Below, one piece after another: positions 5,928 through 50,476 of a DNA stretch of 64,000 nucleotides (the stretch's first letter is position 1; every line of letters starts with the position of its first letter). The stretch is from IMG/VR virus record IMGVR_UViG_3300042866_001263. The stretch is one strand, 5' to 3'. Source of the DNA: a virus (taxonomy: Duplodnaviria > Caudoviricetes). A program made the position numbers and the translations under genes. Below the pieces are notes generated by a model. That model was given only the letters and a program-made list of their open reading frames with translations, was not told the DNA's origin and made no database searches.

Positions 5928-6102
5928 ACGAGTAAAATTCAAAAGTATCACACGAGTGATTGGTCCCAGGAGTGGTATTCATTATTTGGATGCTATTGAT
6001 GAGAATGGAATGCACTGGGTTGCACAAATGGAAACTGGTGTAGAGCCATGGATTACATATAAGGAGACATGGAAGAAAGACCCCCAGCAACCGTATGACT
6101 AA
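5920..6102 (+). CDS. hypothetical protein
   Basis: 60 aa ORF in the array. Confidence 0.65.
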   Translation: MTERVKFKSITRVIGPRSGIHYLDAIDENGMHWVAQMETGVEPWITYKETWKKDPQQPYD

Positions 6103-14690: not shown

Positions 14691-15083
14691 ATGCCCGAAT
14701 TTCAGACGTTCAAAGATTTGAGCGTTACTTTTAAGAAGCATCCAGTCACTGATGATCTTGTCACAGTGAAGGATAAGGCTGCGATATCGCAGTCTATTGT
14801 TAATCTGCTTCTTACTAGTAAGGGTGAGAGATTATTTCAACCAAATTTGGGTTCTGGTATATACCGTAGTTTATTTGAACCTTTAGATTATGGTACTGCT
14901 GGTCTTATCCGAGCAGAGGTTGCTGACGTTCTAGAACGTTACGAACCAAGAATTGTTGTCAGAAAAATTATTTGTATGCCAGATTTTGACAATAATGGGT
15001 ATTCAATTGAGATTACCTATGAAATTCGTGGAAGAGAAGACACACCTGTAGCAGTCGAATTCTTTCTAGAGCGTACTCGATAA
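14691..15083 (+). CDS. gp25: baseplate wedge subunit gp25
   Basis: AISQSIVNLLLTSKGERLFQPNLGS...EPL...YEPRI. Confidence 0.92.
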   Translation: MPEFQTFKDLSVTFKKHPVTDDLVTVKDKAAISQSIVNLLLTSKGERLFQPNLGSGIYRSLFEPLDYGTAGLIRAEVADVLERYEPRIVVRKIICMPDFDNNGYSIEITYEIRGREDTPVAVEFFLERTR

Positions 15084-16883: not shown

Positions 16884-19800
16884 ATGGCAGTCAAGACCAA
16901 AAGAATTTCTACTCTTATTGAGTCACAACTTCCAGAGTTCATTTCTTCGGAATATGAACTTTTTGGTAAGTTTGTAGAGAAATACTATGAATCTCAAGAG
17001 GTTCAAGGAGGGCCACTTGATATCATCAGTAATATACAGAAATATCTAGATATTGATTATTACGAGAAGTCACTACTTAAGCAGAATACAATTCTAGTAT
17101 CATCTATTAATAATTCGGCAACTTCTATAACATTAGAGGATGCTTCTGGATTTCCAGAAAAAAATGGTTATCTTAAAATTGGTAATGAGATTATTTTTTA
17201 TGCAGAAAGAACTGGTAATGTAATCTCAGAATGCTTCCGAGGAGTAAGTGGAAATATTTCACTTGGAGATCTATACGAAAAATCAGCATTTACTACTACT
17301 AGTGCTGAATCGCATTCTTCTGGAGATCTTGTTCTTAACGTTAGCAATTTATTTTTATATGCTATTGTTAAAAATTTCGAATCGCAATATCTAGCGTCAT
17401 TTCCCGAAAAATACTTAAGAGGGGAAGTAGACAAAAGAACTCTGATTAAAAATATTCAGAAATTTTATAAGGCAAAGGGAACAGATAGTTCAATCAAGTT
17501 TATCTTCAATACAATTGTTACTCAAGATATTGAAGATAAACCATCTGTTTATAAGCCAAGAGATTTTACATATAAGTCTTCTGAATCTGATTGGATCAAC
17601 ATTTATGCTCTAAAAGTTAAAGTTGTATCTGGAAATCCAAAGACTTTAATAGGAAAGACCATTGTACAGTCTCCAACAGACGAGTATGGATATGCTTCTG
17701 CTACAGTTGATAATGTATTTGCTGATGGCACAGTTGATAATGAGCAAATATGGAATATTGTTCTTGCTCCAGAGACAGTCAACGGTTTATTCTCTGTATC
17801 GACAAAGACTAGATTAGAAAAAGACCTATTAGCATCCAGTGGATCAACAAAAAGAGTTAGTGTTTTCTCAACTCTTGGTTGGGATCAATCTGGGGAAATT
17901 TTAATTGATGATGAGATCATTAAGTTCTCTGATAAAAATGCTACTCAATTTATAATTGAAAGCAGAGGATCAACACCAGTTTTACATAGTAAAGATGCTT
18001 TTGTCTATAAACCAGTAGTTCTCAGTGGATCTGGTGTAAAACTAATTAGTTTAGGTATTGTTTATAATTTAATTCCAACAGATACACAACCATACTCATC
18101 TGTTGGCGATGAAATACAAATTTCTACACCTGGATTTGAAACTGCAGATCCAAAGATTGTAGTAACTGGAACTAATCAACCAAGATGGATATTAGGTCAA
18201 GGTAATCCTGTTAATATACCAACCAATCCAGCACTTGCTAGTAGTCTAGATGATGTGCCAACTGATGTTTCTGCAATTTTTGAGGATGACCAATACTATT
18301 ATATTGCAAGCTCTAGTTATCCATCATACAAAATTCTTGATGGATCTACAGTAGATCAACAGTTGCTAGATCAAAAGCAATTAAGAATACTAAGAAAATT
18401 TCCAACTAGAACCACTGAAGTCTATAAAACGCCAAAAAGAGATGTTGGTGTTCTTGTAAATGGCACTCCAATATTTAGTTTTAGAGATGAAGAGAGCATC
18501 CGTTTTGGAATACTTGAGGAAATTAAAGTAGATACTCAAGGAACTGGATATGATAAACCACCATTTGTTCTTTTGGATGGAGTACCAAACCAAGCAAGAG
18601 CAGTTTTATCTGGTCAAGTCGTAGAAAAAATTATTGTTGATACAAATACAGTTTTCCCAAGAACTCCAGAGGTAACTGTTACTTCGGGAAGAGATGCTGT
18701 TGTGAGAGCGGTGGTTACCAAAGGAAAAGTCACTAGTCTTATAATTGATAATCCTGGTGAATACTATTCTTCTCCACCTATTATAAGAATTAGAGATAAT
18801 GCTGGAAGAGGAAGATTTGCTGATTATACAGCAGTTGTAAACACAGACGGAAAGATTACCGATTTTGTGCAAAATGCTGAGGGTAACTTCTATAATCAAT
18901 CAACAGTTATTGTTGATGTAATTCCTGTTGGTCGTGGTGCATCTGGAATTCCATATCTGAAAGAATGGAACAAAAATAGATTTGCAAAGTATTCAACCAG
19001 ATTGGATACCGAATATGGATATATTTTCGAAAATTACAATAGTGTTTTAAAATATGGATATGGTCATGTTGCAAACCCAAAGGCATTAAGAGTTGCATTA
19101 AATGACAATATTAATATTGCTGGAGCAGAACCATCTACTAAGACCCACTCTCCAATAATTGGATTTGCTTATGATGGCAATCCAATTTATGGTCCTTTTG
19201 GACACCAGGATGCATTAAATTCACAGTCTCCTATTGTTAGGATGACATCTAGTTACAGTTTAAATAACAACCGCTCTCAGGGTCCATCACTAACAATATA
19301 TCCTATAGGATCATTCGTTAATGACTACAGATACATTCACAAAAGTGGATCACTAGATCAAAATAACGGTAGATTTTGTGTTACTCCAGATTACCCACAA
19401 GGAACATATGCGTACTTCTTAACAATAGATAGTAATCAAGTTCCACAGTTTCCATATTTTGTTGGAGAGAATTTTTATTCTCTTCCAGTAGATAGTAACT
19501 ATAATTCAAATATAAATCAGGCAGATATTCCTAAAAAGTCTAAGAGACTGTTTATTCCTGGTATGCCAAGAAATGGTGATGGAGTAATTGCTCAAATTGC
19601 TGAGGTAAAATCTGGAACTGTAGATTCGATCTCCATACTAAATTCATCAGACAATTTTTCTGTAAATTCAAAGGTTTATTTCGATAATTCTGGCACAGAA
19701 GGAAAAGAAGCAGCTACGGTTGTTTCTTTTGTAAAGGGAAAACCAGTAAATTATTTGTACAGTAAAGAAAATAAAGTTGTACAATTAACTACTGTTCAAA

Positions 19801-22800
19801 CTGCCTACTTATTTGCAAATGACACCCTTAGTCAACCAGCTTCTGGTGCATATGGTGAAATAGTTGGTACTGTAGCAAATGATAATCTAATTGTACTTAA
19901 AAATGTCATCGGAACTTTCAATGGCACTGGTACATTCTCTGCTGCAATTAAAACTTTCTCTATCTTAATTGATCAAAACAGTTCATATACAGAAGGAGCT
20001 ATTCTAAGCTTAACAGATGGAATAAATCTTCCAGTAGCTACCGCACAAGTATTAGAGGGAACATCTAGTCAAAATATCGTTAAAATTAAGGTTTTAACTG
20101 GAACTTGGAGTGTAGATGATAATTATTTCATTCAATCTAGCGATCTTTTTAATACCTCTGGTTCTAGAATTGTAACTCTTACATCTCTAAGTGATGGTTT
20201 AGTTCCATTTGACGTTAACCAAAGTGTTGCATTAGTAGAAACTACGGTTGACCATGGATTGGGAATTGGGGATGAAGTCAAGGTTGATATTTTACCAAAT
20301 GATGTAACGAAGACAAAGACGTATTATCTAAGAAAAAGACTATATCAAACCGTAAAATTAAAGGCACCATCATATCAGTCATCAATTAATTATACTGGTG
20401 TCGGTAGATTTGAAATCTTAAATGGTGGGGCATTTTATACCCCAGGAACATACACAAACGTTTCACTAACAGGAGGTTCTGGCAGTGAAGCAAAAGCTAC
20501 TATTGTTGTGTCTTCTTCTGGTGTTGTATCTTCTGTCACCTTACAAGATGGTGGATCTGGATATAGAAAGGCAGATTACTTGAGTGTTTCTGATGAGGCA
20601 TTAAGTAGATCAAATACTGCTACATCTGGAAGCTCCAGATTGACTTTATATGTAGATCATGCTGGATTTGCAATAGGATCGACAAAGTTAATCGTTGATA
20701 GTACAATAGGAATTTCTGTTGGAGATTTATTGGGTGTTGGAAAAGAGGTAGTTCAAGTTTCATCAATACTAAACAACACCATTACCGTTCTTAGAGCAAA
20801 AGATGGTACAGTAGAAGGAGACCATTTTAATGGAGAAATAGTATATCTCTACAAACCAAAATATAATTTTACAAATAATTTTCAACTATCTCCATCTAGT
20901 TTATCTGGACGCATCAAAAATTATAATCCAGAAACTCAAGAAGTCATTATCACTTTTGATTATGCAACACAGAAAACGAATGCTGAAAAAGTAGAACTTA
21001 CTACCAGTTTCTTTGATTCGAGTGTTCCACAAAGATTAGTTGCAATTGATTCGATTGAAGATGTATCATACAAGTTCGAATTTTCTGCAGATAATGTAAA
21101 TTTTGTTTCAAATCCAAATATTGATTTACAAGAATATTACAATTATAAATTTGATACTTCACATTCATCATTAACTGGCACTTATTTTGATATAAGTCCC
21201 AGTAAGAATTTTAACATCATTACTGAAGAAAAAATTTCATCTGTAATTCTTCCAGGAAATCCTGGATCATTTACATATGTAAAATTTGGATTTGGATCCG
21301 CTTTATCTGAAAATAACTATTCAACTAAAAAGGGAACTCAGTTCTCCAATTTCTATTATTTTGATAAAAATTCAATAGTCGATTCCGAAGGAAAGTACTT
21401 TAAAATAATTACTGATCCATTACAGGGAACTAAAAAAGTAACATATGTTACTCCAAATAGATTTGTATACCAACTAAATTCAACTCCACTTTGGGATGGT
21501 TCTGGAGTAATTACATATACAACAAGTGGTGAATTTGCAATTGGTCAGATTGATCAGATTAAAATGATTAATTTGGGATTGAACTATAAAAAAGTACCAG
21601 TAATAATTGGTTGTGATCCAACAAGAAATTACAGAGCAAAAGCAACTGTTTTATACGATACATCAACTAATACCATAACCGATGTTAGAGTTGACGATAC
21701 TGGATCTAATTATATAAATCCAAGAATTATTATAACAAAGGGTGATGGTGTTGATGCAAGTTTCAATATAATTGTTAGAGATGGCAAAATATTTTCAATC
21801 GTTGTAGATAATCCTGGGAAGGGATATACTTTTGCTCCAGAAATCTCAATTATAGAAGGATCTGTTGTAGCATACGCAGAAAGTACAAGTATTGGTGTTC
21901 CTCAAAGTGTAAGAATACTACAAAATGGAGCATCTTTCCACCTTGATAAAACTATATCTTCATCGTTCACTTCGAAATATATTTTTGGATTATCTAGTAT
22001 TGTCGGAAATTATCAAAGAGGTGAAATTGTAGTACAAAAAATTAATAATGTTGAAGTAGCAAGAGCTGTAGTTTCTGAGTGGAGATCTGGATCCAACTTA
22101 TTAAAAGTAGAGAAAATAACAGGAATTTTCAGAAGAGGATATCCAGTTCAATCTATTTTAACAAATGCTTCTGGATTGATAAAATCTGTTTTTGTCTCAT
22201 CGTTCCAGGATGAGATTGCCAGTTTCTATGATAATCTTGGGTATTATTCTTCAGATAGAGGTAAAATCGGTGTATCCAACCAAAAGATTTTAGATAGTCA
22301 TTTCTATCAAGATTATTCCTATGTTATAGAATCAAAAACTCCAATTGAAAAATGGAGAGACTTAATCAAGTCAACAACACATCCAGCTGGATTTAAACTC
22401 TTTGGTCAGGTTGATGTTGAATCAACTGCTCAATCTGAGATGCCAGGGCAGTCACATAATACTAATTCTCACTTTAGTATAATTCAATTGTGGGATCCAA
22501 ATAAAAATAAAATTACAGTTGAAAACACAAAGAGGACAATTACTCAGATTGTTCAAAAAGTAGAAAATCAAAGAATACGTAGAGGTATTGGATCTGCTGC
22601 TCCATCAGAATTTAACTTTAGTGAATATAGAGCATTTGAAATTAAACTATCTGCTCCATTTGATGGATATTATGATACAGATGGCATATTACAAGGAACA
22701 ACAATTTTCCAATTAAGAAATTCAAATACCAACGCACCATTTACTCCATTAAGTGCTACCAATTTAATTATCACATTAGATGGAATACTGCAGGAACCAG

Positions 22801-25800
22801 GAGTAGCATATACAGTTCAAAATGATACAATTGTTTTCTCTAAACCCCCTCTTGGTGCTGGATTAGAAAGAACTGGAAATAATTTGACAGATCTTACTTC
22901 CTACAGAGGAGTAACATTCTATGGTAAGTATTTTGCGTTTAAGGATAATCAATATAATAATAGATACCTCAAAAAGATTAGGAATATTTTCCAGCGTAGT
23001 GGAAGATGGTTAGATGCTGCTAATCAAATTGATAGAAATAGAACTTTTATTATCGAAGAGGCAGTTGGATATGGAAAGAATAAGTATCCAACATTAGACT
23101 GGAGTACGAAGTTAGACGATTATCAAAGAGATATTGGTTATATTCTAGATGCATATCAGCATGATATTAGATTTGGTGGAAATATAAAAACAGTAGATTA
23201 TATTGGAATTTTTAGAAACAATAGTGACTATGATTACATAACCAAAAATAAAACAAAATCTTTAGATATATTTGAATATGCTACAAGACTAGCTTCTCTT
23301 GCAATTAGAAATTGGGACATTGTTGAAGAAAATGTATCTTATACACAAGGATCTACGACTGTAACTGTATCCAATACAGATAAATTGGTTGTAGGAATGT
23401 ACGTAAGTTCTGGAAATGCATTTTCACAGAACACAAGGATTACTTCAATTAATAATTCTACACAAATTACTGTTTCAAATGCTGCTTTAATAAATTCAGT
23501 TTCAATTTCTGGATCTCCATATAATGCAACATTCTATCTAAATGGAATTAATAATGGAACATACTATGATGCTTCAAATTTAATTCTTGCAAATAAACTC
23601 TATTTACAAGAAGAAGTTAGCGAATACATTTACGATAATTATAGTTTACCAACAACAGATAAACAAAAATGTAAGAGAGATTTGGGATATTTGATTGACG
23701 CTGTTGTTTATCACTTACGTTTTGGTGGAAATGAAAAAATTGTAGAATTTGCAAGATCTTACTACGAATTTTATGGTTATCCATATGGTGAAAAACTAAC
23801 ACGTATAAACAGATCTCAAGAAGAAACTAATGCTGCAATAGATGCTTGGGAAACTCTTGGTGATTTGATGATATTGGCAATGAAGAACCAGTTATCTTCT
23901 GGTGCCTATACACTAATTACTCCAGTTATTGACAATACAATTTTATCAGATCCAATTTTACCTCTATGCGAAGAAGTTACATCTAGTATCAATACGATGA
24001 TCGATATCGTAAAGGATATTATATCAGATGGTGCTGGAATTGTTCAGATAACTCCAATCAATTTAAATAAGTCTGGATATTGGACAAATACTTTAACTTA
24101 CTCAAATTATAATATTATCAACGATCCTCTCTTACTAGCACAAGAATGCGATAATGTGATTTCTTCAGTGGATTCGCTATATGCAAATGTGAAAGATATA
24201 CTTGATAAAAAAACGGTACAAAGAAGTTTACCAGATTATATTGATGGATCAAATAAAGTATTTGAGTTGTATTGGGAAGATGGAACAGAAGTTATTACGG
24301 ATGAAGATGAGGACTTATTCTTAACTATTAATGCTGTTCTACAGAGACCAAAATACAATCAAGAATATCCAAGATTTGATTCGTATTATATTGATAGAAC
24401 TGTAATTCCTAATCTACTTGTATTTGATGTAGCTCCTATATGGGATCAAGATTTTAGTGCGAAAAGTATAGGTGAAGCAACAGCAGTAGAAAAAGTTGTT
24501 GGTATTGGGGTAGGTAACTACAAGAGATTGACAATAGATTATAATTTGGTAAATGATGTTAAATCTGGTCCATTCTTAATTTTAGATGTAGAAGACTATA
24601 CAGTTCAGAATATCGAAGAACCAGATTTCATGTATGTCTTCCTAGATGGTGTACTTCAAAGACAAGGTTACTCGTATACAGTATCTGGTCCCAATATTAC
24701 TTTTAATGTTCCAATATTAAAAGAAATGAAAATTGATATTAGATATTTGTATGGTAGAGATATTGGACAAGTACTTAATATTTTTGATTTCAATCCAGAT
24801 ACTTTCTATGCCAGATCAAAGGTTAATCTAACTGTTACTTCTGGACTGGAAGATTTCATTAAGTATTACTGGATGGGAGATAAAATAGGAACACCAATTC
24901 ATGCCTACCAAGAAGGTACAAATGGAAGGTGTGAAGTTATAGGAGAAATTTCAAATATACTTTCTAATGGCAATTCACTATCATTTGATGTTTTTGGTAA
25001 TAATTATGCGATAGATGTATCTAAACCAGTTTTCTTTGCTGTAAGAGGATTTTATAATATTAACACTCAGTTAACTATTTCAAATGCAACAGTTGCAAAA
25101 GAAACAGATGAGTCTGGAAGATTGATCCTATCAGATCTCAATCAAATCTGGTCTGGAACAATTATCGGAAAGTCATACAGACTTCCATTTATCGGTCTTT
25201 CGAATAGTGATAAAATCCGTATTGATGGACAAGATTCTTTCAGAGAAATAAAGAAACTTCCAGGAACAACAACAAGTAAAGAACATAGAAATTATCAACA
25301 ACTTTCAAATTCTTTATTTGGTTCCGTTGATATTGAAACATATAATGGAATAACCAGAGGAGAAGGATTAAGTGTCGTATGTACAATTCAAAATGGAAAA
25401 GTCGTTGCACTTACTTGGAATCAAAGAAGTTATGATCCAATAACTCAACCAACTGCATATCAGTATTATAATCCACCAATTTTACAATTTATTCCTCAAG
25501 ATGGTAATGGTGGTGGTGCAAGAGCTAATGTACTTGTAAGTAAAGGACAAGTTATTAGCGTAGATTTAATTGATGGAGGATCTGGATATACTCAAGCGCC
25601 CAAAATTGTTGTAGCGAGAGGTTATGATGTTTTAAACACCAGGGATATTGGAGTATCTCTAATCAATATCAGCATGAGTCCATATGTGGAAAATGCTGGA
25701 TTGAATATTATATCAACTATAAATGTTCTTGGAAATCAAGTTGCCTCAGTTTTCTCAGTTACTTCTGTTGTATTAGAAAGTCCAATTAATACTGATAGAG

Positions 25801-27245
25801 TAATAACTGCACAAATACAGTTACTTGAAAATACTGGATCAAATCTATCAAGAAAGCATATAGAATTTTTTGGTAGAGTTTCTCCAAATAGAGATGAAAT
25901 AGAAGTAATTGATATTTTCTACAATAAAACTCAAGTAATTAATCAAATTTCTGGCAGAGTTGCTGACATTGTTTCTACATCAGTTCTTACAACTAACAGA
26001 CAAATTACCACATCTTTTGAAAATCTAATTCCAAATGATGCTTTAACTAATGTCAATTACTATGCTACTGGTGCTTATCTAGATGTAGATTTAGCAATTA
26101 CTGACAATATTGTTTATGTTTCTGATACATCTAAATTTAAATCCAATGGTTATTTACTAATAGGCGATGAAATTGTAAGATACTACAGAAAACTAAATGA
26201 TCGTTTCCTTAAAGTACAAAGGGGTCAATCAAACACAACTGCAAAGTTATGGCTAGCTGGAACATTCTTACGTCAAATACCAGATCCAATTTCTACTGTA
26301 TTTGGTGGCGTTTCTATTATCGAATCTCAGTCTCAGATTGTTAGCATTCAGGGTGGAATTGGAACTGTGAATCTGTCACAGAGAACTACTCAGACACAAA
26401 ATGTAATTCCATCTCCAACTATTATATCAACTTCAAACTTTATTGAAATTGGAATTCTTCCTGTAGTTTCATTAACTTCTACATCTAATCTTACTGCAAA
26501 TACATTTATTGTATTTGATATTAATATTATTTCATCCGTTCAATCCTCGTATTATGGATTACAACATTCTTCTATAGTTCAATCAATACAATCTGAATTA
26601 GATATCAGTAAAGGATCATTAGAATTTTTACTAATTCCACCACCTTCTGGAGTTGTAGATGGTTATGTGGAGAGTATTTTTATTTCTGATCCACTTCAAA
26701 CTAGATTAAATGGATTTATAGATCTTGTAAACACCAATGATCAATATTCAGTAACTTTGAGAAATGGAACTTCAGTAGTTATTAGAAACTCTGTATTTGG
26801 AGTTGATACTCAATATATCGGTGACTATACTCCCACAAACGCTGGACATAGAATATCTCACTTCTCTGGAATATTTGACGATGGATCTTCTGGTGTTTCT
26901 GGATTGACAATAAACGAGATTGATACATACTATCCTTCCCTAACATTACAAGATTTTACTGATAGGGCAAATTCTAGTTACACTATTTCTGGAGAATACT
27001 TCAATCTTCTTCCACCATCTATTCAAAATCCAGTAACATTATCACAATCATCTGGATCTATTGGATCTACAATATCAGTTCAAAAAACAACATATTTTAA
27101 ATCAAGCGGATACATTTTAACAGGTAATGGTGGAGTAATTCAGTATACTGGAAAAACTTCAACATCATTTACTGGATGTTCTGTGGTTAGGGGATCGAAT
27201 ACGTTAAGTGTTGGCACAGAAATCATTCCATTCCAATTGACATAA
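16884..27245 (+). CDS. gp7: giant baseplate wedge initiator (gp7-like), 3453 aa
   Basis: Position after gp6; LIKNIQKFYKAKGTDSSIKFIF; ILDSHFYQDYSYVI..HPAGFKLFG; repeated G.GY beta modules. Confidence 0.85.
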   Translation: MAVKTKRISTLIESQLPEFISSEYELFGKFVEKYYESQEVQGGPLDIISNIQKYLDIDYYEKSLLKQNTILVSSINNSATSITLEDASGFPEKNGYLKIGNEIIFYAERTGNVISECFRGVSGNISLGDLYEKSAFTTTSAESHSSGDLVLNVSNLFLYAIVKNFESQYLASFPEKYLRGEVDKRTLIKNIQKFYKAKGTDSSIKFIFNTIVTQDIEDKPSVYKPRDFTYKSSESDWINIYALKVKVVSGNPKTLIGKTIVQSPTDEYGYASATVDNVFADGTVDNEQIWNIVLAPETVNGLFSVSTKTRLEKDLLASSGSTKRVSVFSTLGWDQSGEILIDDEIIKFSDKNATQFIIESRGSTPVLHSKDAFVYKPVVLSGSGVKLISLGIVYNLIPTDTQPYSSVGDEIQISTPGFETADPKIVVTGTNQPRWILGQGNPVNIPTNPALASSLDDVPTDVSAIFEDDQYYYIASSSYPSYKILDGSTVDQQLLDQKQLRILRKFPTRTTEVYKTPKRDVGVLVNGTPIFSFRDEESIRFGILEEIKVDTQGTGYDKPPFVLLDGVPNQARAVLSGQVVEKIIVDTNTVFPRTPEVTVTSGRDAVVRAVVTKGKVTSLIIDNPGEYYSSPPIIRIRDNAGRGRFADYTAVVNTDGKITDFVQNAEGNFYNQSTVIVDVIPVGRGASGIPYLKEWNKNRFAKYSTRLDTEYGYIFENYNSVLKYGYGHVANPKALRVALNDNINIAGAEPSTKTHSPIIGFAYDGNPIYGPFGHQDALNSQSPIVRMTSSYSLNNNRSQGPSLTIYPIGSFVNDYRYIHKSGSLDQNNGRFCVTPDYPQGTYAYFLTIDSNQVPQFPYFVGENFYSLPVDSNYNSNINQADIPKKSKRLFIPGMPRNGDGVIAQIAEVKSGTVDSISILNSSDNFSVNSKVYFDNSGTEGKEAATVVSFVKGKPVNYLYSKENKVVQLTTVQTAYLFANDTLSQPASGAYGEIVGTVANDNLIVLKNVIGTFNGTGTFSAAIKTFSILIDQNSSYTEGAILSLTDGINLPVATAQVLEGTSSQNIVKIKVLTGTWSVDDNYFIQSSDLFNTSGSRIVTLTSLSDGLVPFDVNQSVALVETTVDHGLGIGDEVKVDILPNDVTKTKTYYLRKRLYQTVKLKAPSYQSSINYTGVGRFEILNGGAFYTPGTYTNVSLTGGSGSEAKATIVVSSSGVVSSVTLQDGGSGYRKADYLSVSDEALSRSNTATSGSSRLTLYVDHAGFAIGSTKLIVDSTIGISVGDLLGVGKEVVQVSSILNNTITVLRAKDGTVEGDHFNGEIVYLYKPKYNFTNNFQLSPSSLSGRIKNYNPETQEVIITFDYATQKTNAEKVELTTSFFDSSVPQRLVAIDSIEDVSYKFEFSADNVNFVSNPNIDLQEYYNYKFDTSHSSLTGTYFDISPSKNFNIITEEKISSVILPGNPGSFTYVKFGFGSALSENNYSTKKGTQFSNFYYFDKNSIVDSEGKYFKIITDPLQGTKKVTYVTPNRFVYQLNSTPLWDGSGVITYTTSGEFAIGQIDQIKMINLGLNYKKVPVIIGCDPTRNYRAKATVLYDTSTNTITDVRVDDTGSNYINPRIIITKGDGVDASFNIIVRDGKIFSIVVDNPGKGYTFAPEISIIEGSVVAYAESTSIGVPQSVRILQNGASFHLDKTISSSFTSKYIFGLSSIVGNYQRGEIVVQKINNVEVARAVVSEWRSGSNLLKVEKITGIFRRGYPVQSILTNASGLIKSVFVSSFQDEIASFYDNLGYYSSDRGKIGVSNQKILDSHFYQDYSYVIESKTPIEKWRDLIKSTTHPAGFKLFGQVDVESTAQSEMPGQSHNTNSHFSIIQLWDPNKNKITVENTKRTITQIVQKVENQRIRRGIGSAAPSEFNFSEYRAFEIKLSAPFDGYYDTDGILQGTTIFQLRNSNTNAPFTPLSATNLIITLDGILQEPGVAYTVQNDTIVFSKPPLGAGLERTGNNLTDLTSYRGVTFYGKYFAFKDNQYNNRYLKKIRNIFQRSGRWLDAANQIDRNRTFIIEEAVGYGKNKYPTLDWSTKLDDYQRDIGYILDAYQHDIRFGGNIKTVDYIGIFRNNSDYDYITKNKTKSLDIFEYATRLASLAIRNWDIVEENVSYTQGSTTVTVSNTDKLVVGMYVSSGNAFSQNTRITSINNSTQITVSNAALINSVSISGSPYNATFYLNGINNGTYYDASNLILANKLYLQEEVSEYIYDNYSLPTTDKQKCKRDLGYLIDAVVYHLRFGGNEKIVEFARSYYEFYGYPYGEKLTRINRSQEETNAAIDAWETLGDLMILAMKNQLSSGAYTLITPVIDNTILSDPILPLCEEVTSSINTMIDIVKDIISDGAGIVQITPINLNKSGYWTNTLTYSNYNIINDPLLLAQECDNVISSVDSLYANVKDILDKKTVQRSLPDYIDGSNKVFELYWEDGTEVITDEDEDLFLTINAVLQRPKYNQEYPRFDSYYIDRTVIPNLLVFDVAPIWDQDFSAKSIGEATAVEKVVGIGVGNYKRLTIDYNLVNDVKSGPFLILDVEDYTVQNIEEPDFMYVFLDGVLQRQGYSYTVSGPNITFNVPILKEMKIDIRYLYGRDIGQVLNIFDFNPDTFYARSKVNLTVTSGLEDFIKYYWMGDKIGTPIHAYQEGTNGRCEVIGEISNILSNGNSLSFDVFGNNYAIDVSKPVFFAVRGFYNINTQLTISNATVAKETDESGRLILSDLNQIWSGTIIGKSYRLPFIGLSNSDKIRIDGQDSFREIKKLPGTTTSKEHRNYQQLSNSLFGSVDIETYNGITRGEGLSVVCTIQNGKVVALTWNQRSYDPITQPTAYQYYNPPILQFIPQDGNGGGARANVLVSKGQVISVDLIDGGSGYTQAPKIVVARGYDVLNTRDIGVSLINISMSPYVENAGLNIISTINVLGNQVASVFSVTSVVLESPINTDRVITAQIQLLENTGSNLSRKHIEFFGRVSPNRDEIEVIDIFYNKTQVINQISGRVADIVSTSVLTTNRQITTSFENLIPNDALTNVNYYATGAYLDVDLAITDNIVYVSDTSKFKSNGYLLIGDEIVRYYRKLNDRFLKVQRGQSNTTAKLWLAGTFLRQIPDPISTVFGGVSIIESQSQIVSIQGGIGTVNLSQRTTQTQNVIPSPTIISTSNFIEIGILPVVSLTSTSNLTANTFIVFDINIISSVQSSYYGLQHSSIVQSIQSELDISKGSLEFLLIPPPSGVVDGYVESIFISDPLQTRLNGFIDLVNTNDQYSVTLRNGTSVVIRNSVFGVDTQYIGDYTPTNAGHRISHFSGIFDDGSSGVSGLTINEIDTYYPSLTLQDFTDRANSSYTISGEYFNLLPPSIQNPVTLSQSSGSIGSTISVQKTTYFKSSGYILTGNGGVIQYTGKTSTSFTGCSVVRGSNTLSVGTEIIPFQLT

Positions 27246-42211: not shown

Positions 42212-45200
42212 ATGAGTTTAGAATTTAATGCTGATAAGCAGATAATCAAATCAACAAATCCTCGTATTATTGGTAGTGGAGACTTTACTATTAGATCAGG
42301 CAGTGGTTCTGATGAAAAGGAAGTCTTTAGGGTTCAACTAGATAATACCACAAAACTTCCCCGTATTGGTGTCAATAGAACTGGGGAAAAAATTGAGAAA
42401 ATTTTAATCAATCAGGGTTTTAATGGAAGTGGATATACCACACAACCATCTGTATTAATTGATCCACCAAGTCTTCCTGGTGGTATTCAGGCACAAGCTT
42501 CTGCTATTATTTCAGCTGGATCGGTAGTTGCTATTATTGTTGATAACGTTGGTTCTGGTTATACTTCTGCTCCTTCCGTAACTATTACTGGAGGTAATGG
42601 TAATGGAGCAGCTGCTACAGCGTATCTTGATACTGTAGATTATGAACTAGATGTTAATGGTGCTATTCGTACATCTACTTCTATTATTTCTGATACTGCA
42701 AGAATTTTAAACCTTGATATCGATAACTTTGTAACCGCTGATGCTAAGTTTCGTGCTCCTTCATTAAAGACTTACGCAAATAATACTGGCACTTTATGGG
42801 CCTCATCAACATCCGTAAGTATCAATTCAACTTTATATTTTGGTAATAACATTTACCAAGCATTAAATACTGGTCTGAGTGGAAGTGTGCCACCAACTCA
42901 TTCAGATGGCATAGTTTCAAATGGTACAGTAAGTCTCAAGCATATTGGTTATAGAGTATCAAGTCCTCTACTTAAAGGATATAATGAGGATATGAGTTAT
43001 CCTCGTTCAATTACTCCACCTTTTGGAGATGATTCCGATAAAATCGCTACCACAGAATACGTTTTAAACCTTGCTACAAATGACGTTGGTGGTCGTGTTT
43101 ATGTTTCTGCTGAGATTGGTAACGATTCAAATAATGGCAGATCTGCTGCTGCTCCTGTAAGAACAATCAAGAGAGCATGTCAGATTGCTTCCCAGACAAA
43201 AGGAATTAAAGAAACGGTTGTTGTTTCTGGTGGTGAATATGTAGAAGATAACCCAATTTCCATTCCAGCAGATTGTTCAGTTGTTGGTGACTCACTTCGT
43301 ATTGTTATTGTTCGTCCGAACAATCCGAACAAACACATGTTCAAGTTTGCGGACAAGAACTATATTTCTGGTTTGACATTTAGAGATAAGATTGATAGTA
43401 ATGGAGATCCTATTGCTACTTGGAAATATGCTTGTGTATTTGACGACAAGCAAAGAATTTATTATGATCCAGCGTCTGGTGGAGATTTCAAGAGAAGTTT
43501 TCCAATCGGACATCAGATTTTTGGACCAGCAAAAATTAGAGTTACTTTCCAAACAAACACAGGTGGTACAGCAATTGCTGAAAACGAATATGTAACTGGT
43601 GTTAACACTGGAGCAGTTGGTTTAGTTACGGCAAGAACATTTACATCTGGAACTGTAAGTGGAACTGTTGATGTTAGAGTTCTAAGTGGTTCTTTCCAAA
43701 CTGGTGAAACATTTACATATCCTGGTGATGGTGCAAGATCTTGGCAAGCAAATACTGTTTATACTTTAAACACTATTATCTACAATGCCAATAATGTTTA
43801 TTCAGTAACTACTGCAGGTACTTCTGGTTCAACTTCACCAACTCATACAACTGGAGCAGAGGCTAACGGAACTGCTACTTTAACTTGGATCCGCAACGTA
43901 TATAACTTAATTGCTGTTCAAGTTGAATCAATTAGAGCGGAAGGTGAAGTTGTAGATCATATTACAGATTTAACTACCACACTACCAATTACAAGAGTAG
44001 ATGGATCACTACAAGCAGATCCAGCAACTGGTGGTATTGTTTTATATACCAATCCATTAGTTGGAAGAAACAATTTTCATAACTTTAAAGAAAATCAAGA
44101 AATTGAAATTTCTGGGTTACCAACATCTACCCCAGATCTTTCATCTCTAAATGGTAAGCAAAGAGTTTTCAAAATTATTCGTGATGCGGATGGAAGATCC
44201 AGACGTATTGTTCTATACAAACAACTAGCAGCATTTACAGATGTCAACTATATTCCAGTAAATGCCAGTGTAAAATCAGCAAATAATTATATTACACTAT
44301 CGCTACTAAACTCTCCAAACAAGTTTCCACTGCCAAACTTTGTTTTAAGACGTTATCAGGATGCTTGTAATCTAATCAGAAATAATATTGACTTCATTAA
44401 AGATGAAGCATATTTACAAATACAAGATGAGTTTAGCCCCAACTTCTCAATCACTTCAATTCAAACAACATCTGGTACTGGTGGTGATGCTGGATATGTA
44501 ATTTTTAGAGTTACAACAACTGGCAATCATGGTTTCTATCTTAATGATACGGTTTCCATTTTCAAAAATGGTTTAACCAATAATATTAACGGAACATTTA
44601 CTGTAACTAATAGAGTAAGTGCAACAGCATTTGAAGTAAAATGGTTGGGTGTTATTGGAACACTTGGTTTAACTTCAGGAACAATTTACACCACATCATC
44701 AACTCCAGCTCTATCTGCGAGTGCTTACGTTCAAAGATCATTTAGTGTACCAAACGAAGCAAAGTGTCGTAGAGATATTGGACACGTGGTAAATGCCATC
44801 ATCATGGATCTTGAGTATGGTGGAAACTATAATGTTATTGAAGCTGCTAAAACTTATGTAACTGGTACTCAGATTGGATACGTTAGCAACGAAATTGCCG
44901 AAACAGTTAGATCAGTTGAGATTGTACGCCAACTTTGTATTCTTGCGATGCGTCGTTGGAGAACTGGAAATGGACAAATAGCAGATCCTCTGTACACTCC
45001 AGTTTACTCTAATGTAGCACGTTATTTTGATACATCAGTAGTACAGGATACATCAAGTCCAGCATGTAATGATGTTGCTTCTGCAATCACAACGCTTGCT
45101 TACGTTTATACAGATACATTATCAAATAACGCAACTGGAACTCAATTAGATGCAGGATATTTAATTTCCAGAAACGCAGACTTTATTGCTTCAGAAGCAC

Positions 45201-48200
45201 TTGGATATGCCAAGGCACTTTATCCTGCGCTTGGATTAACTACAGATCAAGAAAGAAAGTGCAAGAGAGATATTAGATATGTTCTTGCTGGATTAAGAAG
45301 AGACCTTATCTTAGGTGGCAATGCTGGTATTGTAACCGCTGCAGAATCATATTTTACTGGAACAGAACTTACTGGCATTCCTTCTGCTGAGTTAACAGCA
45401 ACTCGTTACGCATTCACTAAAGTCAAAGAGCTAGCACAACTAGCGATGCGTAATTGGAAAACGGGTGCTAATGGAACAGGAGCAACATATACTCCAACTT
45501 ACGAAACATCAATTTCATTATTTACAGATGCAACAATTCTGGTAGATCCAGCAACTTCAAAGTGTGCTGGTATTCTCAGCGCAATTGATACTGAGATGAC
45601 ACTATTGGATGGTATCCTTGCTGGAACTACAGTTGCAGGAACTACCACAAAAACATATGGCACCCTATATTCCCCAACGATTACATATCCAGATGGTGCT
45701 TTATATGATGCTGACAATAAGTATATTACTCCACGAGGAGTATGGGATGATCTGCCAGCAATTGAAGCATCGCCATATATTCAAAACGCTTCAGTTATCT
45801 CATTCTTAGGTGGTGGTGGTTGTGAAATTGATGGAGATAAGGTAACTCAACCAAACTCACCATTTGCAGGATTAGAACTTAATGGTGCAGCATCTTATCC
45901 AAACCAGGGCAAATCCATGGTTGCTGCTCAGTTCACCATTGTTTCGTTTGGTGGAACAGGATACAGAGTAGTCAACGATGGTTACTGCCAGTTGGTTTCC
46001 GTATTCGTTCTATTCTGTGCTGATGGTGTTTATGCTGATAGTGGTGGTTATGCTTCTGTTACCAACGCTGCTACCAACTTTGGTATCTATGCTCTAAGAG
46101 CTCGTGGATATAGAAAAGATCCATACACATTTGATATTGGAACCATTACTAATATCACCACATCTGTTACAGGAAAAACAGAAATTACTGTTAGTGGATT
46201 AGGTAGAAGACCATTTGAACATTACGTTGTTAAGGTTGATGGTTATACTAACACAAACACTAACATTGAATACTTTGTCGAATCTGTAAGAAACGTAACT
46301 GTTGGTCCTCCTTTCACAGCAACAATTGTTCTAAATGAAGGAACAGATTTCACGAAGATATCTACAGGAACTCCAGTAGGCAATTCGAATGGAGAGTTTG
46401 TTGGTAAGACAATTAAACTACACAGACCTTCGATTGTTAACTCATCTGGTCACACTTGGGAATTTGCTGGATCTGGCACAAACTACAATGCTCTACCAGA
46501 AAACGGTGGTATTAAGATTGAAGCATACGAACAGGTTTCGGAAAACTATGGTCGTGTTTATACCTCTGGTACTGATGAACTTGGAGACTTCAAAGTAGGT
46601 TACTTTGCTCGTATTGAAAACAGAACTGGTGCTATTACCTTCACAGGTACTGTTACCATCTCGGAAGTTGAATTCCTAAAACTAAAAGGTGGTGACGTTG
46701 TTGTTACTGGTTTCGATGCTTCTAATACTCTTGGTGGTGCTTTTGCTACTGACTCCAAACTACCCACGCAGAAGGCAGTTAAGGATTATATCTCGAATAA
46801 CCTTGGACCATACATCAACAAGCCATATTCCACTAATGCCGTCCCTAGGGCGCTTGTAGAACTCACAGACAGCGGTAAGATCTCTATTGACCAGATCCCT
46901 GCACTAAGACCTTTCAACGTCTTCACAGTGGCAAATCAGGCGGCTCGTCTTGCGTTAGAGGGAGCACTTGCTGGTGACATTGCTATTCAATCCGATACAA
47001 CTACATCATATATTCTCAATAATGACCTAACCAGTTTGTATCTTGGTTTCCCAGTAGATACTGCTTTAGTATTCAATACTGGAAATATCTTTACTGGTTC
47101 TGGATCAGGTGGTCAAATTCAAGCAACAGAATACAGACAAGGTGTTGTCTGGAAGATTAACATTACCAATCCTGGTTCTGGTTATACTGTTGCACCAAAT
47201 ATTGTTATCTCTGGTGGCAATCCTCAAGGTGGTGCAGTATCAGCAACTGCTACTTGTACGATTGCTAACGGTCAAGTTGTTTCTGTAACAATCACGGAAA
47301 ACAATGGTTATATTGGTGGTACAGGATACACAACACAACCATCAGTTATCTTCACTGGTCCTGGTGGTGCTGGTATTACTGCTACTGCTTCTGCTCTGAT
47401 TGAAAATAGATTGTATGGTGATATCGTCAACAACATCAAGATTGTTGACACAGATACAGTTACTTCAAATAATACTCCAACTGGAACTGTTGTTGATATC
47501 TCAAGAGTTGTCAATACTTCATCGAAGATAAATGGCAACTGGGTATCTCTATCATCCAACCAAATCTCAGCCGATGCGATTACTTCTGGTGTTATTGCTA
47601 CGACCCGTCTGGCACAAAACTCATCAGAAGCAAACTCATTTACTTTCCTTAGAGGCGACCAAGCTTATGCACCAGTCCTCCAATCACTAAAAGGAACTGA
47701 AACAAGATACTTTGCCAAGTTGAATAATGCTGTTTCCTCTGGATCAAGCACATTCGTATTCACAACAAACGCAAATGTTCTCAAGGGTCATGGAATTGTC
47801 AGTGACGTTACTGGCATCCCATCAGGAACATTAGTTAATTCTGTTGTAACTGCTGCTGGATTTACCACGGTTCAATTGAATAACCCAGTAACAGCAAACA
47901 TTTCTGCTGCTACAATTATCCAGTTTACACGTCCAGCATCACCACTAATTATCGATGCTGCTTATACAGTAGGAAACTTTGTTGATAGTGTTGTTATTGC
48001 TAATGGTGGCAGTGGATTTACAAATGGTTCTTACTTCGACGTTTCATTGTCGGGCGGAACTGGAACTGGTCTGAAAGCTAACATCATTGTTTCTGGTAAT
48101 GCAGTAACTACAATTACCGTAACGAATGGTGGTGTCAATTACAATGCTGACTTTAGTGTTACTTCAGCACCATCTATTATTGGTTCTGGATCTGGTCTAG

Positions 48201-50476
48201 TTCTTCTAGCAAAAACAGCTACGACTAATAAGAACTATGCTAATGCTGCAGTTGATATCAGGAGAGTTGATGATCTAACTATATCTGCTGACCCATATGG
48301 AACAGCAGGTATTTGCCGTTTCCAAAAGTCACAGTTTACTCTAGGTGCTGCTGGCAACGGATCAGTAACACTCAAGACTGGTGCTGATAGTGGATTGGAT
48401 GCTGACTTGCTTGATGGCGCACAAGGCGCTTATTACTTGAATGCTAGCAATCTAAATGCTGGTACTCTGTCAGTTGATCGTCTTGCTGGAACATACAACA
48501 TCTCCATCTCAGGTCAGTCTGGTAACACATTACGTCTGATTACCTCTACAAATAACCCAACATCTTCACCTTCCCCAAGCGCATTTGCTGAAGGTATTAT
48601 TGCTGACACTAGAAACAATACTTCAGATAGTTTGGAAGATGGTGGAACCAGACACCTCGTTCTCACACTAAGGAATGGATCGTCTGGTTTCGATGCTACT
48701 TTTGGTGGCGTAAGGCAACTTGCCTTCACTGACAACAACAATATGTGGCTTCGTGGTTCTGGAACTGGAGTTACCACATTTGGTTCCTGGGCTAAAGTCT
48801 GGACCGATCTAAATGATGGTTCTGGAACTGGTTTGGACGCTGACAAACTTGATGGTCGCCAAGGAGCATTCTACCAAAATGCTTATAATATAAACGCTGG
48901 CACTATTAGTGATAATCGCTTACCATCATACGCTACTCAAAAGAGTTTCAATAATAGCGTAAAAGTTCTAACAACGACCAATAATCCTTATTATGACATT
49001 TACGTTACTGGTTTTGTATTGACAGCATCTCCATTCCTTGCTGGTCAAAACGTAAACCTATATGATGTCAACTCACAAGGAACTGGAACCATCCTCATCA
49101 CCAATGTAATTACATATAATGATGCTGATGATATGATGGATTATAGCATCATTACTGGTGTTCTAACTACTGGTACATTTAATGGTGCTCAGACAATTGG
49201 TACTGCATCAAACAGAGTTGCTTTCCAAGACTATAGCCTAAACTCAAGTGGAACCTTTGAAACGGCATCACTTGTCAGCAGTACTGGAACTGCTCTACTA
49301 AAACTTGGTAGGAAGGATGGCACTGCATCATCCCCTGCTATCTACTTCAGCAGCAGCTCTTCAGCAGCATCCAACTATAACGTTGCTCTTGTTGCTTCTG
49401 GTGGTAGCAATACTGATGGAAGTGGTAACCTCAACATTGTTGCTGGTAATGCAAGTGCAGTAACGATCAACAACAACGCTATCTGGAACGCTGGTAACCT
49501 AACTCCAGCAACCAACAACGTTGCGAATACCGTTGTTCTCCGTGATGCTTCTGGTAACTTCGCTGCTGGCACAATCACCGCTAGCGTTACTGGTGCTGCT
49601 TCTCTCAACGTATTGAAAGCAGGCGATACGATGACAGGTCAGTTGAAGATTGCCTTTAACAGTGGTCTAGGCATTAGCGAGACTGGCGGAAATGGAGCAA
49701 GATTAACAATTACTTCATCTTCTGCTGGATCTATTCTAAATGTTGTTGATAACTCAGCACTTATTTTCCAAACAGATAGTGGTGTAGAGCAAGGTAGATT
49801 TAGAAATAATGCTGCTGGAGGCGGATTATTAGTCAATACTGCTCTTCGTTTGGTAAATGGTAATATTACACAGGCACAAACTGGAACAACTGCTATTGAT
49901 AATAGCTTTACTTCAGGTAGTAATCCACAAGCATGGAGAATGATTATTCCAGATAATGCCAATACTTCTGGTTTTGGAGTTGGAGCAAATAATCTTGGAA
50001 TTTATTATAATGGATTATCGGATTACCACGCTAAGTTTGTAACTGGAGCAAATAATGTATTTTTCCCTGGAAGAGTTTGGGTTGGTAATAGCAATCAAGC
50101 AGCTACAACCAGTTATCAACTTCAAGTAACTGGTTCTTTTGCCGCTACATCTAAGTCATTCCGTATTCCTCACCCAACCAAAGAGAACCATGACCTCGTT
50201 TATGGTTCGTTGGAAGGACCAGAGCACGGCGTATATGTTCGTGGTAAGTCATCTGGTGTCGTTGAGTTACCTGATTACTGGGGTGCTCTTGTTGATGAAA
50301 ACACCATCACCGTTCAACTCACCCCAATCGGCAATCATATGTCATGGGTTGAGAAGATTGAAGATAACAAGATCCTTATTGGTGGAGGTGAAGCATTCTA
50401 CTTCGTTCAGGCGATGCGTAAGGATATTGAGAAGTTAGAGGTTGAAGTTGAGTTACCTGTCGAGGAGGAAGAGTGA
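42212..50476 (+). CDS. long tail fibre protein, 2754 aa (beta-helix region, LDADxLDG repeats, C-terminal chaperone-like domain)
   Basis: YVSAEIGNDSNNG...TIKRA beta-helix start; GLDADLLDG and GLDADKLDG repeats; C-terminal KSFRIPHP...GSLEGPEHGVYVRG. Confidence 0.85.
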   Translation: MSLEFNADKQIIKSTNPRIIGSGDFTIRSGSGSDEKEVFRVQLDNTTKLPRIGVNRTGEKIEKILINQGFNGSGYTTQPSVLIDPPSLPGGIQAQASAIISAGSVVAIIVDNVGSGYTSAPSVTITGGNGNGAAATAYLDTVDYELDVNGAIRTSTSIISDTARILNLDIDNFVTADAKFRAPSLKTYANNTGTLWASSTSVSINSTLYFGNNIYQALNTGLSGSVPPTHSDGIVSNGTVSLKHIGYRVSSPLLKGYNEDMSYPRSITPPFGDDSDKIATTEYVLNLATNDVGGRVYVSAEIGNDSNNGRSAAAPVRTIKRACQIASQTKGIKETVVVSGGEYVEDNPISIPADCSVVGDSLRIVIVRPNNPNKHMFKFADKNYISGLTFRDKIDSNGDPIATWKYACVFDDKQRIYYDPASGGDFKRSFPIGHQIFGPAKIRVTFQTNTGGTAIAENEYVTGVNTGAVGLVTARTFTSGTVSGTVDVRVLSGSFQTGETFTYPGDGARSWQANTVYTLNTIIYNANNVYSVTTAGTSGSTSPTHTTGAEANGTATLTWIRNVYNLIAVQVESIRAEGEVVDHITDLTTTLPITRVDGSLQADPATGGIVLYTNPLVGRNNFHNFKENQEIEISGLPTSTPDLSSLNGKQRVFKIIRDADGRSRRIVLYKQLAAFTDVNYIPVNASVKSANNYITLSLLNSPNKFPLPNFVLRRYQDACNLIRNNIDFIKDEAYLQIQDEFSPNFSITSIQTTSGTGGDAGYVIFRVTTTGNHGFYLNDTVSIFKNGLTNNINGTFTVTNRVSATAFEVKWLGVIGTLGLTSGTIYTTSSTPALSASAYVQRSFSVPNEAKCRRDIGHVVNAIIMDLEYGGNYNVIEAAKTYVTGTQIGYVSNEIAETVRSVEIVRQLCILAMRRWRTGNGQIADPLYTPVYSNVARYFDTSVVQDTSSPACNDVASAITTLAYVYTDTLSNNATGTQLDAGYLISRNADFIASEALGYAKALYPALGLTTDQERKCKRDIRYVLAGLRRDLILGGNAGIVTAAESYFTGTELTGIPSAELTATRYAFTKVKELAQLAMRNWKTGANGTGATYTPTYETSISLFTDATILVDPATSKCAGILSAIDTEMTLLDGILAGTTVAGTTTKTYGTLYSPTITYPDGALYDADNKYITPRGVWDDLPAIEASPYIQNASVISFLGGGGCEIDGDKVTQPNSPFAGLELNGAASYPNQGKSMVAAQFTIVSFGGTGYRVVNDGYCQLVSVFVLFCADGVYADSGGYASVTNAATNFGIYALRARGYRKDPYTFDIGTITNITTSVTGKTEITVSGLGRRPFEHYVVKVDGYTNTNTNIEYFVESVRNVTVGPPFTATIVLNEGTDFTKISTGTPVGNSNGEFVGKTIKLHRPSIVNSSGHTWEFAGSGTNYNALPENGGIKIEAYEQVSENYGRVYTSGTDELGDFKVGYFARIENRTGAITFTGTVTISEVEFLKLKGGDVVVTGFDASNTLGGAFATDSKLPTQKAVKDYISNNLGPYINKPYSTNAVPRALVELTDSGKISIDQIPALRPFNVFTVANQAARLALEGALAGDIAIQSDTTTSYILNNDLTSLYLGFPVDTALVFNTGNIFTGSGSGGQIQATEYRQGVVWKINITNPGSGYTVAPNIVISGGNPQGGAVSATATCTIANGQVVSVTITENNGYIGGTGYTTQPSVIFTGPGGAGITATASALIENRLYGDIVNNIKIVDTDTVTSNNTPTGTVVDISRVVNTSSKINGNWVSLSSNQISADAITSGVIATTRLAQNSSEANSFTFLRGDQAYAPVLQSLKGTETRYFAKLNNAVSSGSSTFVFTTNANVLKGHGIVSDVTGIPSGTLVNSVVTAAGFTTVQLNNPVTANISAATIIQFTRPASPLIIDAAYTVGNFVDSVVIANGGSGFTNGSYFDVSLSGGTGTGLKANIIVSGNAVTTITVTNGGVNYNADFSVTSAPSIIGSGSGLVLLAKTATTNKNYANAAVDIRRVDDLTISADPYGTAGICRFQKSQFTLGAAGNGSVTLKTGADSGLDADLLDGAQGAYYLNASNLNAGTLSVDRLAGTYNISISGQSGNTLRLITSTNNPTSSPSPSAFAEGIIADTRNNTSDSLEDGGTRHLVLTLRNGSSGFDATFGGVRQLAFTDNNNMWLRGSGTGVTTFGSWAKVWTDLNDGSGTGLDADKLDGRQGAFYQNAYNINAGTISDNRLPSYATQKSFNNSVKVLTTTNNPYYDIYVTGFVLTASPFLAGQNVNLYDVNSQGTGTILITNVITYNDADDMMDYSIITGVLTTGTFNGAQTIGTASNRVAFQDYSLNSSGTFETASLVSSTGTALLKLGRKDGTASSPAIYFSSSSSAASNYNVALVASGGSNTDGSGNLNIVAGNASAVTINNNAIWNAGNLTPATNNVANTVVLRDASGNFAAGTITASVTGAASLNVLKAGDTMTGQLKIAFNSGLGISETGGNGARLTITSSSAGSILNVVDNSALIFQTDSGVEQGRFRNNAAGGGLLVNTALRLVNGNITQAQTGTTAIDNSFTSGSNPQAWRMIIPDNANTSGFGVGANNLGIYYNGLSDYHAKFVTGANNVFFPGRVWVGNSNQAATTSYQLQVTGSFAATSKSFRIPHPTKENHDLVYGSLEGPEHGVYVRGKSSGVVELPDYWGALVDENTITVQLTPIGNHMSWVEKIEDNKILIGGGEAFYFVQAMRKDIEKLEVEVELPVEEEE

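Follow-up and report, generated by a model that had tools for sequence, protein, structure and literature searches.

Why would a viral baseplate protein carry two copies of a phycobiliprotein-like domain, one apparently inside the other and only one with the cysteine that holds the bilin? The question is raised by a 64,000-nucleotide stretch of the IMG/VR virus record IMGVR_UViG_3300042866_001263, here called the window, which covers the block of structural genes in a T4-like cyanomyovirus. The pair lies in a gp7-like giant baseplate wedge protein of 3453 amino acids, encoded by a single uninterrupted open reading frame (ORF) at 16884..27245; this ORF, the fibre-like ORF described below, and the domain copies in both are on the plus strand. 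The nested pair spans residues 2040-2440 of the protein and belongs to the bilin-binding globin (phycobiliprotein) superfamily. New in this window are the domain-in-domain architecture and the natural decay of the site. The initial annotation had described the pair from a few peptides, all of which are found in frame +1 of 23013-24212 inside this ORF, and the cysteines that it placed are where it put them (Cys2263 at 23670, Cys2362 at 23967, Cys2422 at 24147). The tyrosine that it saw in place of the Cys84 equivalent of the first copy, copy A, is Tyr2080 (23121-23123). Homology between copy A and the second copy, copy B, is evident from BLASTP (E 1e-10), with 32% identity in an alignment of 111 residues. 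With either as query, phmmer finds two further copies, C and D, in a fibre-like ORF at 42212-50476 (domain E 2e-13 and 4e-11). The count of four copies in the window, two in each protein, is thus upheld by phmmer and by a hidden Markov model (HMM) of the family.

Structure comparison and profile alignment both place the domain with the phycobiliproteins. Copy B was modelled by AlphaFold2 without templates, with a predicted local distance difference test score (pLDDT) of 87.8 and a predicted template modelling score (pTM) of 0.86. About 46 of its 50 top Foldseek matches in the PDB are phycobiliproteins, with template modelling (TM) scores up to 0.64. Among 48,161 chains compared by VIA-align, phycoerythrin beta ranks first (Z 15.5, 148 residues, 2.4 A), followed by allophycocyanin (13.3), the ApcE bilin domain (12.8), and globin-coupled sensors (about 12). 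These alignments begin at phycobiliprotein residue 25-33 or so, and no solved phage protein is among the structure-search matches to copy B. A larger model that contains both copies gives Z-scores of about 15-17 against phycobiliproteins (15.5-16.9 overall). At the sequence level, 26 of the 27 phmmer matches of the region in the PDB are phycobiliprotein alpha chains, mostly phycocyanin alpha (PC-alpha), with a best E-value of 0.004, and K-C-K-R-D-L-G-Y of copy B aligns to K-C-A-R-D-I-G-Y around Cys84. A profile of 58 copies behaves similarly: 28 of its 31 PDB matches are phycobiliproteins, with profile positions 5-64 on PC-alpha 34-104 (E about 0.004). For a profile-to-profile comparison, 221 ORFs were collected from cyanobacterial cpcA loci by a back-translated motif search, reduced to 85, and aligned. 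The program hhalign matches the 58 phage copies to these 85 phycobiliproteins over 93 collinear columns (probability 93.7%, P 1.8e-7) and places the phage C-x-R-D on Cys84-x-Arg-Asp. Reversing the alignment gives P 0.53, and shuffling in blocks of 10 columns gives scores of 23-33, compared to 49 for the real alignment.

Several of these results weigh against homology and have to be set beside it. The PDB sequence and profile E-values near 0.004 are marginal taken alone. The Pfam phycobiliprotein family PF00502 scores 17.0-20.0 bits on the copy A region, below its gathering threshold of 22.2, and Pfam scans of copy B alone and of the fibre copies give no match. Since the block-shuffled controls retain scores of 23-33, the C-x-R-D-x-G-Y block carries about half of the hhalign signal; the flanking helices supply the rest. 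A generic helical bundle that resembles phycobiliproteins by chance or convergence, with a coincidental C-x-R-D, would account for the sub-threshold Pfam scores and for the concentration of the profile score in one short block, and helical folds often yield middling Z-scores. Such a resemblance is nevertheless very improbable, given the collinear hhalign match and its failure on reversal, and given that two independent structure searches rank phycobiliproteins above every other fold. PF00502 is also matched repeatedly by independent proteins: when the 58 copies are scanned singly it matches seven of them (best E 0.0022), every other family matches one, and it turns up in unrelated giant relatives as well. 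The phage domain is almost certainly a homologous fold and a distant relative of phycobiliproteins, and the proposal of a phycobiliprotein-like fold is borne out by Foldseek, VIA-align, and hhalign alike.

The arrangement of the two copies was studied in a model of residues 2020-2460, built with 36 orthologues (441 residues, pLDDT 80.2). The model consists of helices at 21-122, six strands at 127-199, helices at 206-363, a disordered stretch, and a confident helix at 400-421. The first group of helices is the N-terminal part of copy A (aa 2040-2141, 23001..23306, pLDDT 78-95), with equivalents of helices A/B, E, F', F, and G; by hhalign it matches phycobiliproteins with P 2.3e-4. The strands form a small domain (aa 2146-2218, 23319..23537) in what would be the G-H loop of copy A, and this domain does not match the helical domain profile. 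Copy B (aa 2223-2382, 23550..24029) is a complete domain by the AlphaFold2 model, VIA-align, and Foldseek, and it bears the K-C-x-R-D site (Cys2263 at 23670-23672). It is followed by a linker (aa 2383-2418, 24030..24137) of no regular secondary structure (pLDDT 44-71) and by a terminal helix (aa 2419-2440, 24138..24203, pLDDT 78-93) that contains Cys2422 (24147-24149).

The terminal helix is read as helix H of copy A. Some phycobiliprotein chains span the whole model in VIA-align, from residue 1 or 5 to residue 421 or 422, with 140-161 residues aligned and Z of about 15-17; 4lm6_B, for example, aligns 150 residues at 2.9 A over its residues 17-177. Other chains align to about 120-204 through 362 of the model, which is copy B. 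Because the alignments of about 150 residues end at the last helix, and the N-terminal part of copy A has only about 118 residues, this helix was modelled as helix H of copy A. Profile matches point the same way. The family HMM aligns aa 2386-2451 to its positions 120-173 (37 bits), and hhalign sets the helix on family H-helix columns 124-149 (P 3e-4). When the helix is spliced onto the N-terminal part of copy A, the hhalign match grows from 105 columns to 135 and its score from 145 to 162. The layout is therefore probably A (N-terminal part), beta domain, B (complete), linker, A (helix H), as the model predicts. It counts against this layout that it rests on a predicted model and on the first and last aligned residues, not on inspected coordinates. 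The alignment ranges and the H-helix profile matches nonetheless favor the earlier proposal that copy B is inserted in copy A before its last helix. The nested layout is specific to this gp7 clade: gp7 of P-HM1 has two separate complete copies and S-PM2 p088 has five or six, all of them with C-x-R-D.

Copy A may begin with an additional helix. The candidate (aa 2022-2037, 22947..22994) would be the equivalent of helix Y and is of low confidence, as it corresponds to residues 3-18 of the 441-residue model, where pLDDT is below 50. The sub-threshold PF00502 match in the copy A region begins at aa 2026, profile position 15, and PC-alpha 20-65 aligns there.

The two copies in the fibre-like protein differ in layout. 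Copy C (aa 711-977, 44342..45142) has its first helices at 711-755 and the remainder at 833-977, and it carries K-C-R-R-D with Cys852 at 44765. The HMM matches 833-977 at profile positions 27-169 (89.6 bits) and, weakly, 711-755 at positions 8-28 (5.2 bits). From the sequence, the break between these two parts of copy C seems to be due to a beta-rich insert (44477-44707). Copy D (aa 971-1148, 45122..45655) is complete and uninterrupted; its HMM match covers profile positions 5-176 (136.5 bits), and its site is K-C-K-R-D (Cys1017 at 45260). The nested pair of the gp7-like protein indicates that whole domains can be inserted into this fold.

The bilin attachment site is present in copies B, C, and D and absent from copy A. 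At the corresponding Lys-Cys-x-Arg-Asp of phycobiliproteins, and of BBAG-1/3 among the bilin biosynthesis-associated globins (BBAGs), a bilin is bound by a thioether bond to the Cys. In copy B the K, C, R, D, and G of K-C-x-R-D-x-G are each conserved in 36 of 36 gp7 orthologues. In copy A of the same 36 proteins the tyrosine is fixed (36/36), the arginine is kept in 20, the aspartate in 32, and the glycine in 28, and the downstream structural motif Y-x-H-D-x-R-F-G-G-N is invariant. The same pattern holds in a wider sample. The first protein set supplied 815 copies for alignment, of which 722 have Cys, 93 have Tyr, 761 have Arg, and 810 have Asp, and each of the 93 with Tyr is the copy A of a gp7 orthologue. 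In the top 150 cluster representatives, from clusters less than 50% identical, there are 1645 repeats and 1480 C-x-R-D motifs (about 90%). Thus the site of copy A has very probably decayed, with the Cys lost and the Arg relaxed, in agreement with the earlier suggestion that loss of the Cys marks functional divergence. The nested pair serves as a natural internal control, in which the copy that lacks the Cys lets its Arg drift and its neighbour keeps all the site residues. This suggests that the Cys, Arg, and Asp act as one unit. Relaxed selection on the partners of a lost Cys would be expected if the three residues serve a single ligand site, as in phycobiliproteins.

These observations can be joined in one explanation. 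Copy A would be the outer frame, with the beta domain and the complete copy B in its G-H loop and its own helix H after B. During assembly in the cyanobacterial cytoplasm, copy B would take up a host bilin covalently at Cys2263, either autocatalytically, as in the BBAGs, or with the help of a lyase from the host or the phage. The role of copy A would be that of a scaffold lacking a chromophore, which positions copy B on the baseplate wedge, and a pigmented baseplate or fibre could be a light-responsive element of the particle. The chain as a whole, from the nested fold to a bilin-bearing copy B, stands at about an even chance of being right, and the actual attachment of bilin to the domain at slightly less than that. 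It weighs against bilin attachment, which is inferred, that a conserved Cys in a virion protein exposed to oxidising seawater could have other chemistry.

The principal alternative is that the domain is purely structural: descended from bilin globins, it would serve as a rigid helical spacer in baseplates and fibres and hold no chromophore. The Cys-x-Arg-Asp would then be kept for folding or assembly, for example for inter-subunit disulfides formed after lysis or for a buried salt bridge. This is possible, though doubtful. It is favored by the occurrence of the domain always within giant structural proteins, with up to 37 repeats, and by copy A, whose conservation in 36 orthologues without the Cys implies that the fold has a use even where the site is gone. 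Both gp7 and the fibre protein have a second invariant Cys where helix H begins; this too fits a structural role, although it is a trait of these lineages only. On the other hand, the conserved residues are exactly the triad that contacts the bilin, in about 90% of the 1645 repeats, and the Arg relaxes where the Cys is lost. In the giant relatives, which have 22-37 repeats, cysteines number about one to a repeat, with hardly any elsewhere, and a lone Cys per repeat is hard to square with an intradomain disulfide.

The second cysteine was considered in this connection. It is invariant in both H helices of the pair (Cys2362, at the start of helix H of copy B, and Cys2422), within a common motif C-x-E/D-V-x-S-S-I/V. 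Most full-length copies outside the gp7 and fibre lineages do not have it. A disulfide within the domain, from the Cys of helix E to that of helix H, was rejected: copy A lacks the first and yet keeps the second in 36 of 36 orthologues, so the pair is not obligatory, and the single Cys per repeat in the giant relatives and the missing helix-H Cys in most other copies oppose it as well. The helix-H cysteines (23967-23969 and 24147-24149) lie just after the G-H loop. In beta-phycobiliproteins the same region holds beta-155, the second Cys to which a bilin is attached and the target of T-type lyases such as CpeT. The helix-H Cys might be a second attachment site.

A further alternative is that the domain is a ligand or receptor module for something other than a bilin, such as another tetrapyrrole, heme, or a component of the host surface, with C-x-R-D re-used. 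The next-best structures after phycobiliproteins are globin-coupled sensor and RsbR-type non-heme globin domains (Z 9-12), and the annotations of proteins with the domain name them tail fibres and short tail fibres, both of which would suit such a module. It is improbable all the same, since the sequence and profile matches point to phycobiliproteins and not to heme globins, and no His is conserved family-wide at the heme-ligand position. Heme binding in particular was rejected on the ground that no His next to the site is conserved across the family; in the column following the site, 724 of 817 copies have Asp, and only gp7 copies have His.

The copies of the window are not a product of chance. 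An HMM built from them gives 911 domain matches in 121 related proteins, and when 1.8 billion cluster representatives were searched with a profile, the domain turned up in 1613 protein clusters. As had been proposed, it is a module common to two otherwise different virion proteins, and it also occurs in many tail, fibre, and baseplate proteins. When 50,697 phage genomes were searched by tblastn with copy B and with repeats of two giant relatives, 146, 120, and 217 records matched, in gp7, tail fibre, short tail fibre, or virion structural genes. All of these records are Synechococcus or Prochlorococcus phages, except for one unannotated marine single-cell record. BFVD likewise contains the domain in cyanophages, and in some uncultured Caudovirales. 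Among cultured phages the domain is thus confined to cyanophages, and uncultured jumbo phages without psbA carry it as well. The initial annotation had taken equal prevalence in phages of non-phycobilin hosts, with no conservation of the Cys, as evidence that would speak against it; Cys conservation is in fact very high, and the proposal is not refuted on this ground.

Giant metagenome proteins (P0030, P0079, P0103, and P0123-P0127) of 4000-6400 aa have 22-37 tandem copies. Their repeats form runs of short copies of about 117 aa that lack helix H, closed by one full copy and then a gap of 45-200 aa. The first helix of the next copy may complete the fold of a repeat that lacks helix H. Nesting was rejected as the cause of the short-repeat runs, as the length of the gaps (45-203 aa) does not follow how many short copies a run contains.

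Genes for bilin synthesis occur in some of the phages that carry the domain. In IMG/VR, 564 relatives carry the repeat, and 13 of the largest records were searched. None of the 13 has psbA, including four at >=96% completeness. Adjacent genes for heme oxygenase and a ferredoxin-dependent bilin reductase are found in four of the 13, among them three of the four records that are >=96% complete, and CpeT is found in one of the 13. The four records with the pair (L131, L149, L168, and L194, corresponding to G001, G002, G003, and G006) are 134-274 kb in length, and three are rated complete. The pair is far from the repeat gene, for example at 95819-96926 in G001, and never adjoins the domain gene. 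Among five cultured cyanophages with the domain, four have CpeT, S-B43 being the exception, and only P-HM1 has heme oxygenase and bilin reductase. An obligatory coupling of the domain to a phage CpeT lyase gene was rejected on account of S-B43. Overall the association is suggestive: the domain tracks settings in which bilin is available from the host or the phage. The occurrence of the domain together with heme oxygenase and bilin reductase genes in phages without psbA is also difficult for a purely structural role.

Other results of this survey weigh against bilin binding. S-B43, the closest cultured relative, has no CpeT, heme oxygenase, or bilin reductase, and a structural role would fit this lack of any phage bilin genes. 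A tblastn search of the window, which is about 30% of a genome of about 212 kb, with phage heme oxygenase, bilin reductase, and CpeT gave only matches with E > 0.9. In addition, the bilin-gene counts cover domain-bearing phages only. Because bilin genes are absent from both S-B43 and the window, any bilin and lyase would have to be derived from the host.

Light-harvesting phycobiliproteins (PF00502: CpcA/B, CpeA/B, ApcA/B) share with the phage domain a globin-like helical fold of about 150 residues (Z 15-17), with the same order of helices, and the Lys-Cys-x-Arg-Asp-x-Gly-Tyr on helix E at the Cys84 bilin position. They differ from it in several ways. Phycobiliproteins are free subunits of 160-170 aa, whereas giant virion proteins contain the phage domain as an embedded, repeated, or nested part. 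The X-Y hairpin that pairs alpha with beta subunits seems to be missing from phage copy B, judged by where its alignments begin, and copy A has a single candidate upstream helix (pLDDT <50). The phage domain falls below the PF00502 threshold and has an invariant motif of its own, D-A-x-x-x-D-L-x-Y-G-G-N. ApcE provides a parallel in architecture, as it has a phycobiliprotein-type domain interrupted by an insert within a large multidomain protein, and it matches copy B structurally at Z 12-12.8 (4xxi, 7eyd, 7sc7, and 9wg7). The ApcE insertion is in the loop between helices B and E, and the bilin Cys of ApcE is not at position 84. In the phage proteins, by contrast, the G-H loop of copy A holds a whole second domain as well as the beta domain, and the insert of copy C follows the first helices.

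The CXRD motif was described in a study of the BBAGs by Rockwell, Martin, and Lagarias in 2023 (PMC10151467). BBAG-1/3 globins with CXRD attach bilins with no lyase, and in genomes BBAGs are associated with genes for heme oxygenase and bilin reductase (PMC10151467). Like the phage domains, BBAGs are relatives of phycobiliproteins outside the antenna, and BBAG-1/3 carry CXRD, a likeness drawn from the published description. As for bilin genes near the phage domain, the heme oxygenase and bilin reductase pair occurs in four of 13 phage records without psbA, both genes occur in P-HM1, and neither is found in S-B43 or the window. In contrast to the phage domains, which are virion modules not adjacent to bilin genes, BBAGs are small bacterial proteins that stand alone and have their genes beside those for bilin synthesis. 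Globin-coupled sensor and RsbR domains have the globin-like fold (Z 9-12), but they lack C-x-R-D, give no sequence or profile match, and function in cytoplasmic signalling.

Bilin-bearing virions would bear on two questions in cyanophage biology. A full-text literature search with partial coverage of subscription journals turned up no description of a phycobiliprotein-like domain in a virion protein. It is an open question why some cyanomyoviruses adsorb only in the light. The light-dependent adsorption of S-PM2, P-HM1, and P-HM2 is unexplained, and all three have the domain in their gp7 or fibre proteins. Cyanomyovirus particles might be pigmented, with bilin-bearing baseplate and fibre domains acting as a virion photoreceptor that gates adsorption or the triggering of the baseplate. 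Copy A, which lacks the Cys, would serve in such particles as a dark scaffold and pass on to the wedge a change that light induces in copy B. This extension is unlikely on present evidence; if true, it would explain the light-dependent adsorption of these three phages. The second question is the purpose of heme oxygenase and bilin reductase cassettes in phages, which has been left open, with a bilin-binding globin mentioned only as a speculative possibility (PMC11480375). It is sharpest in phages thought to infect hosts other than cyanobacteria. If the virion domains do bind bilin, they would be the missing acceptor for the phage heme oxygenase, bilin reductase, and CpeT genes. For both questions, virion relatives of phycobiliproteins with a nearly invariant bilin triad are a concrete and testable candidate.

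The genes around the pair support the identification of its host protein. A megablast search of 50,697 phage records gives a single relative, Synechococcus phage S-B43, which is 74.5% identical to part of the query. The ORF with the nested pair is flanked by a gp6-like ORF upstream (15083-16879, PF21379) and a gp8-like ORF downstream (27301-29127, PF09215). Its PHROG matches are to baseplate wedge and virion structural proteins (E 0 to 1e-211), and its homologue in P-HM1 is annotated as gp7. The Pfam baseplate-wedge model PF23786 scores 16.6 bits on it, below the cutoff of 27. The name gp7-like was chosen because synteny and PHROGs support it and PF23786 is sub-threshold. The protein also contains a YHYH domain (PF14240, E 4.5e-30) at aa 749-854 (19128-19445) that is common to nearly all of its orthologues. 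The ORF with copies C and D (42212..50476, 2754 aa) is tail-fibre-like by its match to phrog_5342, tail fiber protein (E 0), and a Pfam scan of it finds no family.

Three other ORFs in the window have a recognisable domain or motif. After gp8 there is a giant ORF of 2710 aa (29185-37317) that has DUF4815 (E 3.7e-48) and no phycobiliprotein-like copy. In an ORF of 272 aa (6095-6913), PF00037 makes a weak match, at 21.7 bits barely above the cutoff, to a motif of the 4Fe-4S ferredoxin type. Directly after the fibre-like ORF, an ORF of 228 aa (50473-51159) encodes a Laminin_G_3 / concanavalin-like lectin domain (E 3e-19), and a similar gene is found near the repeat giant on contig L003.

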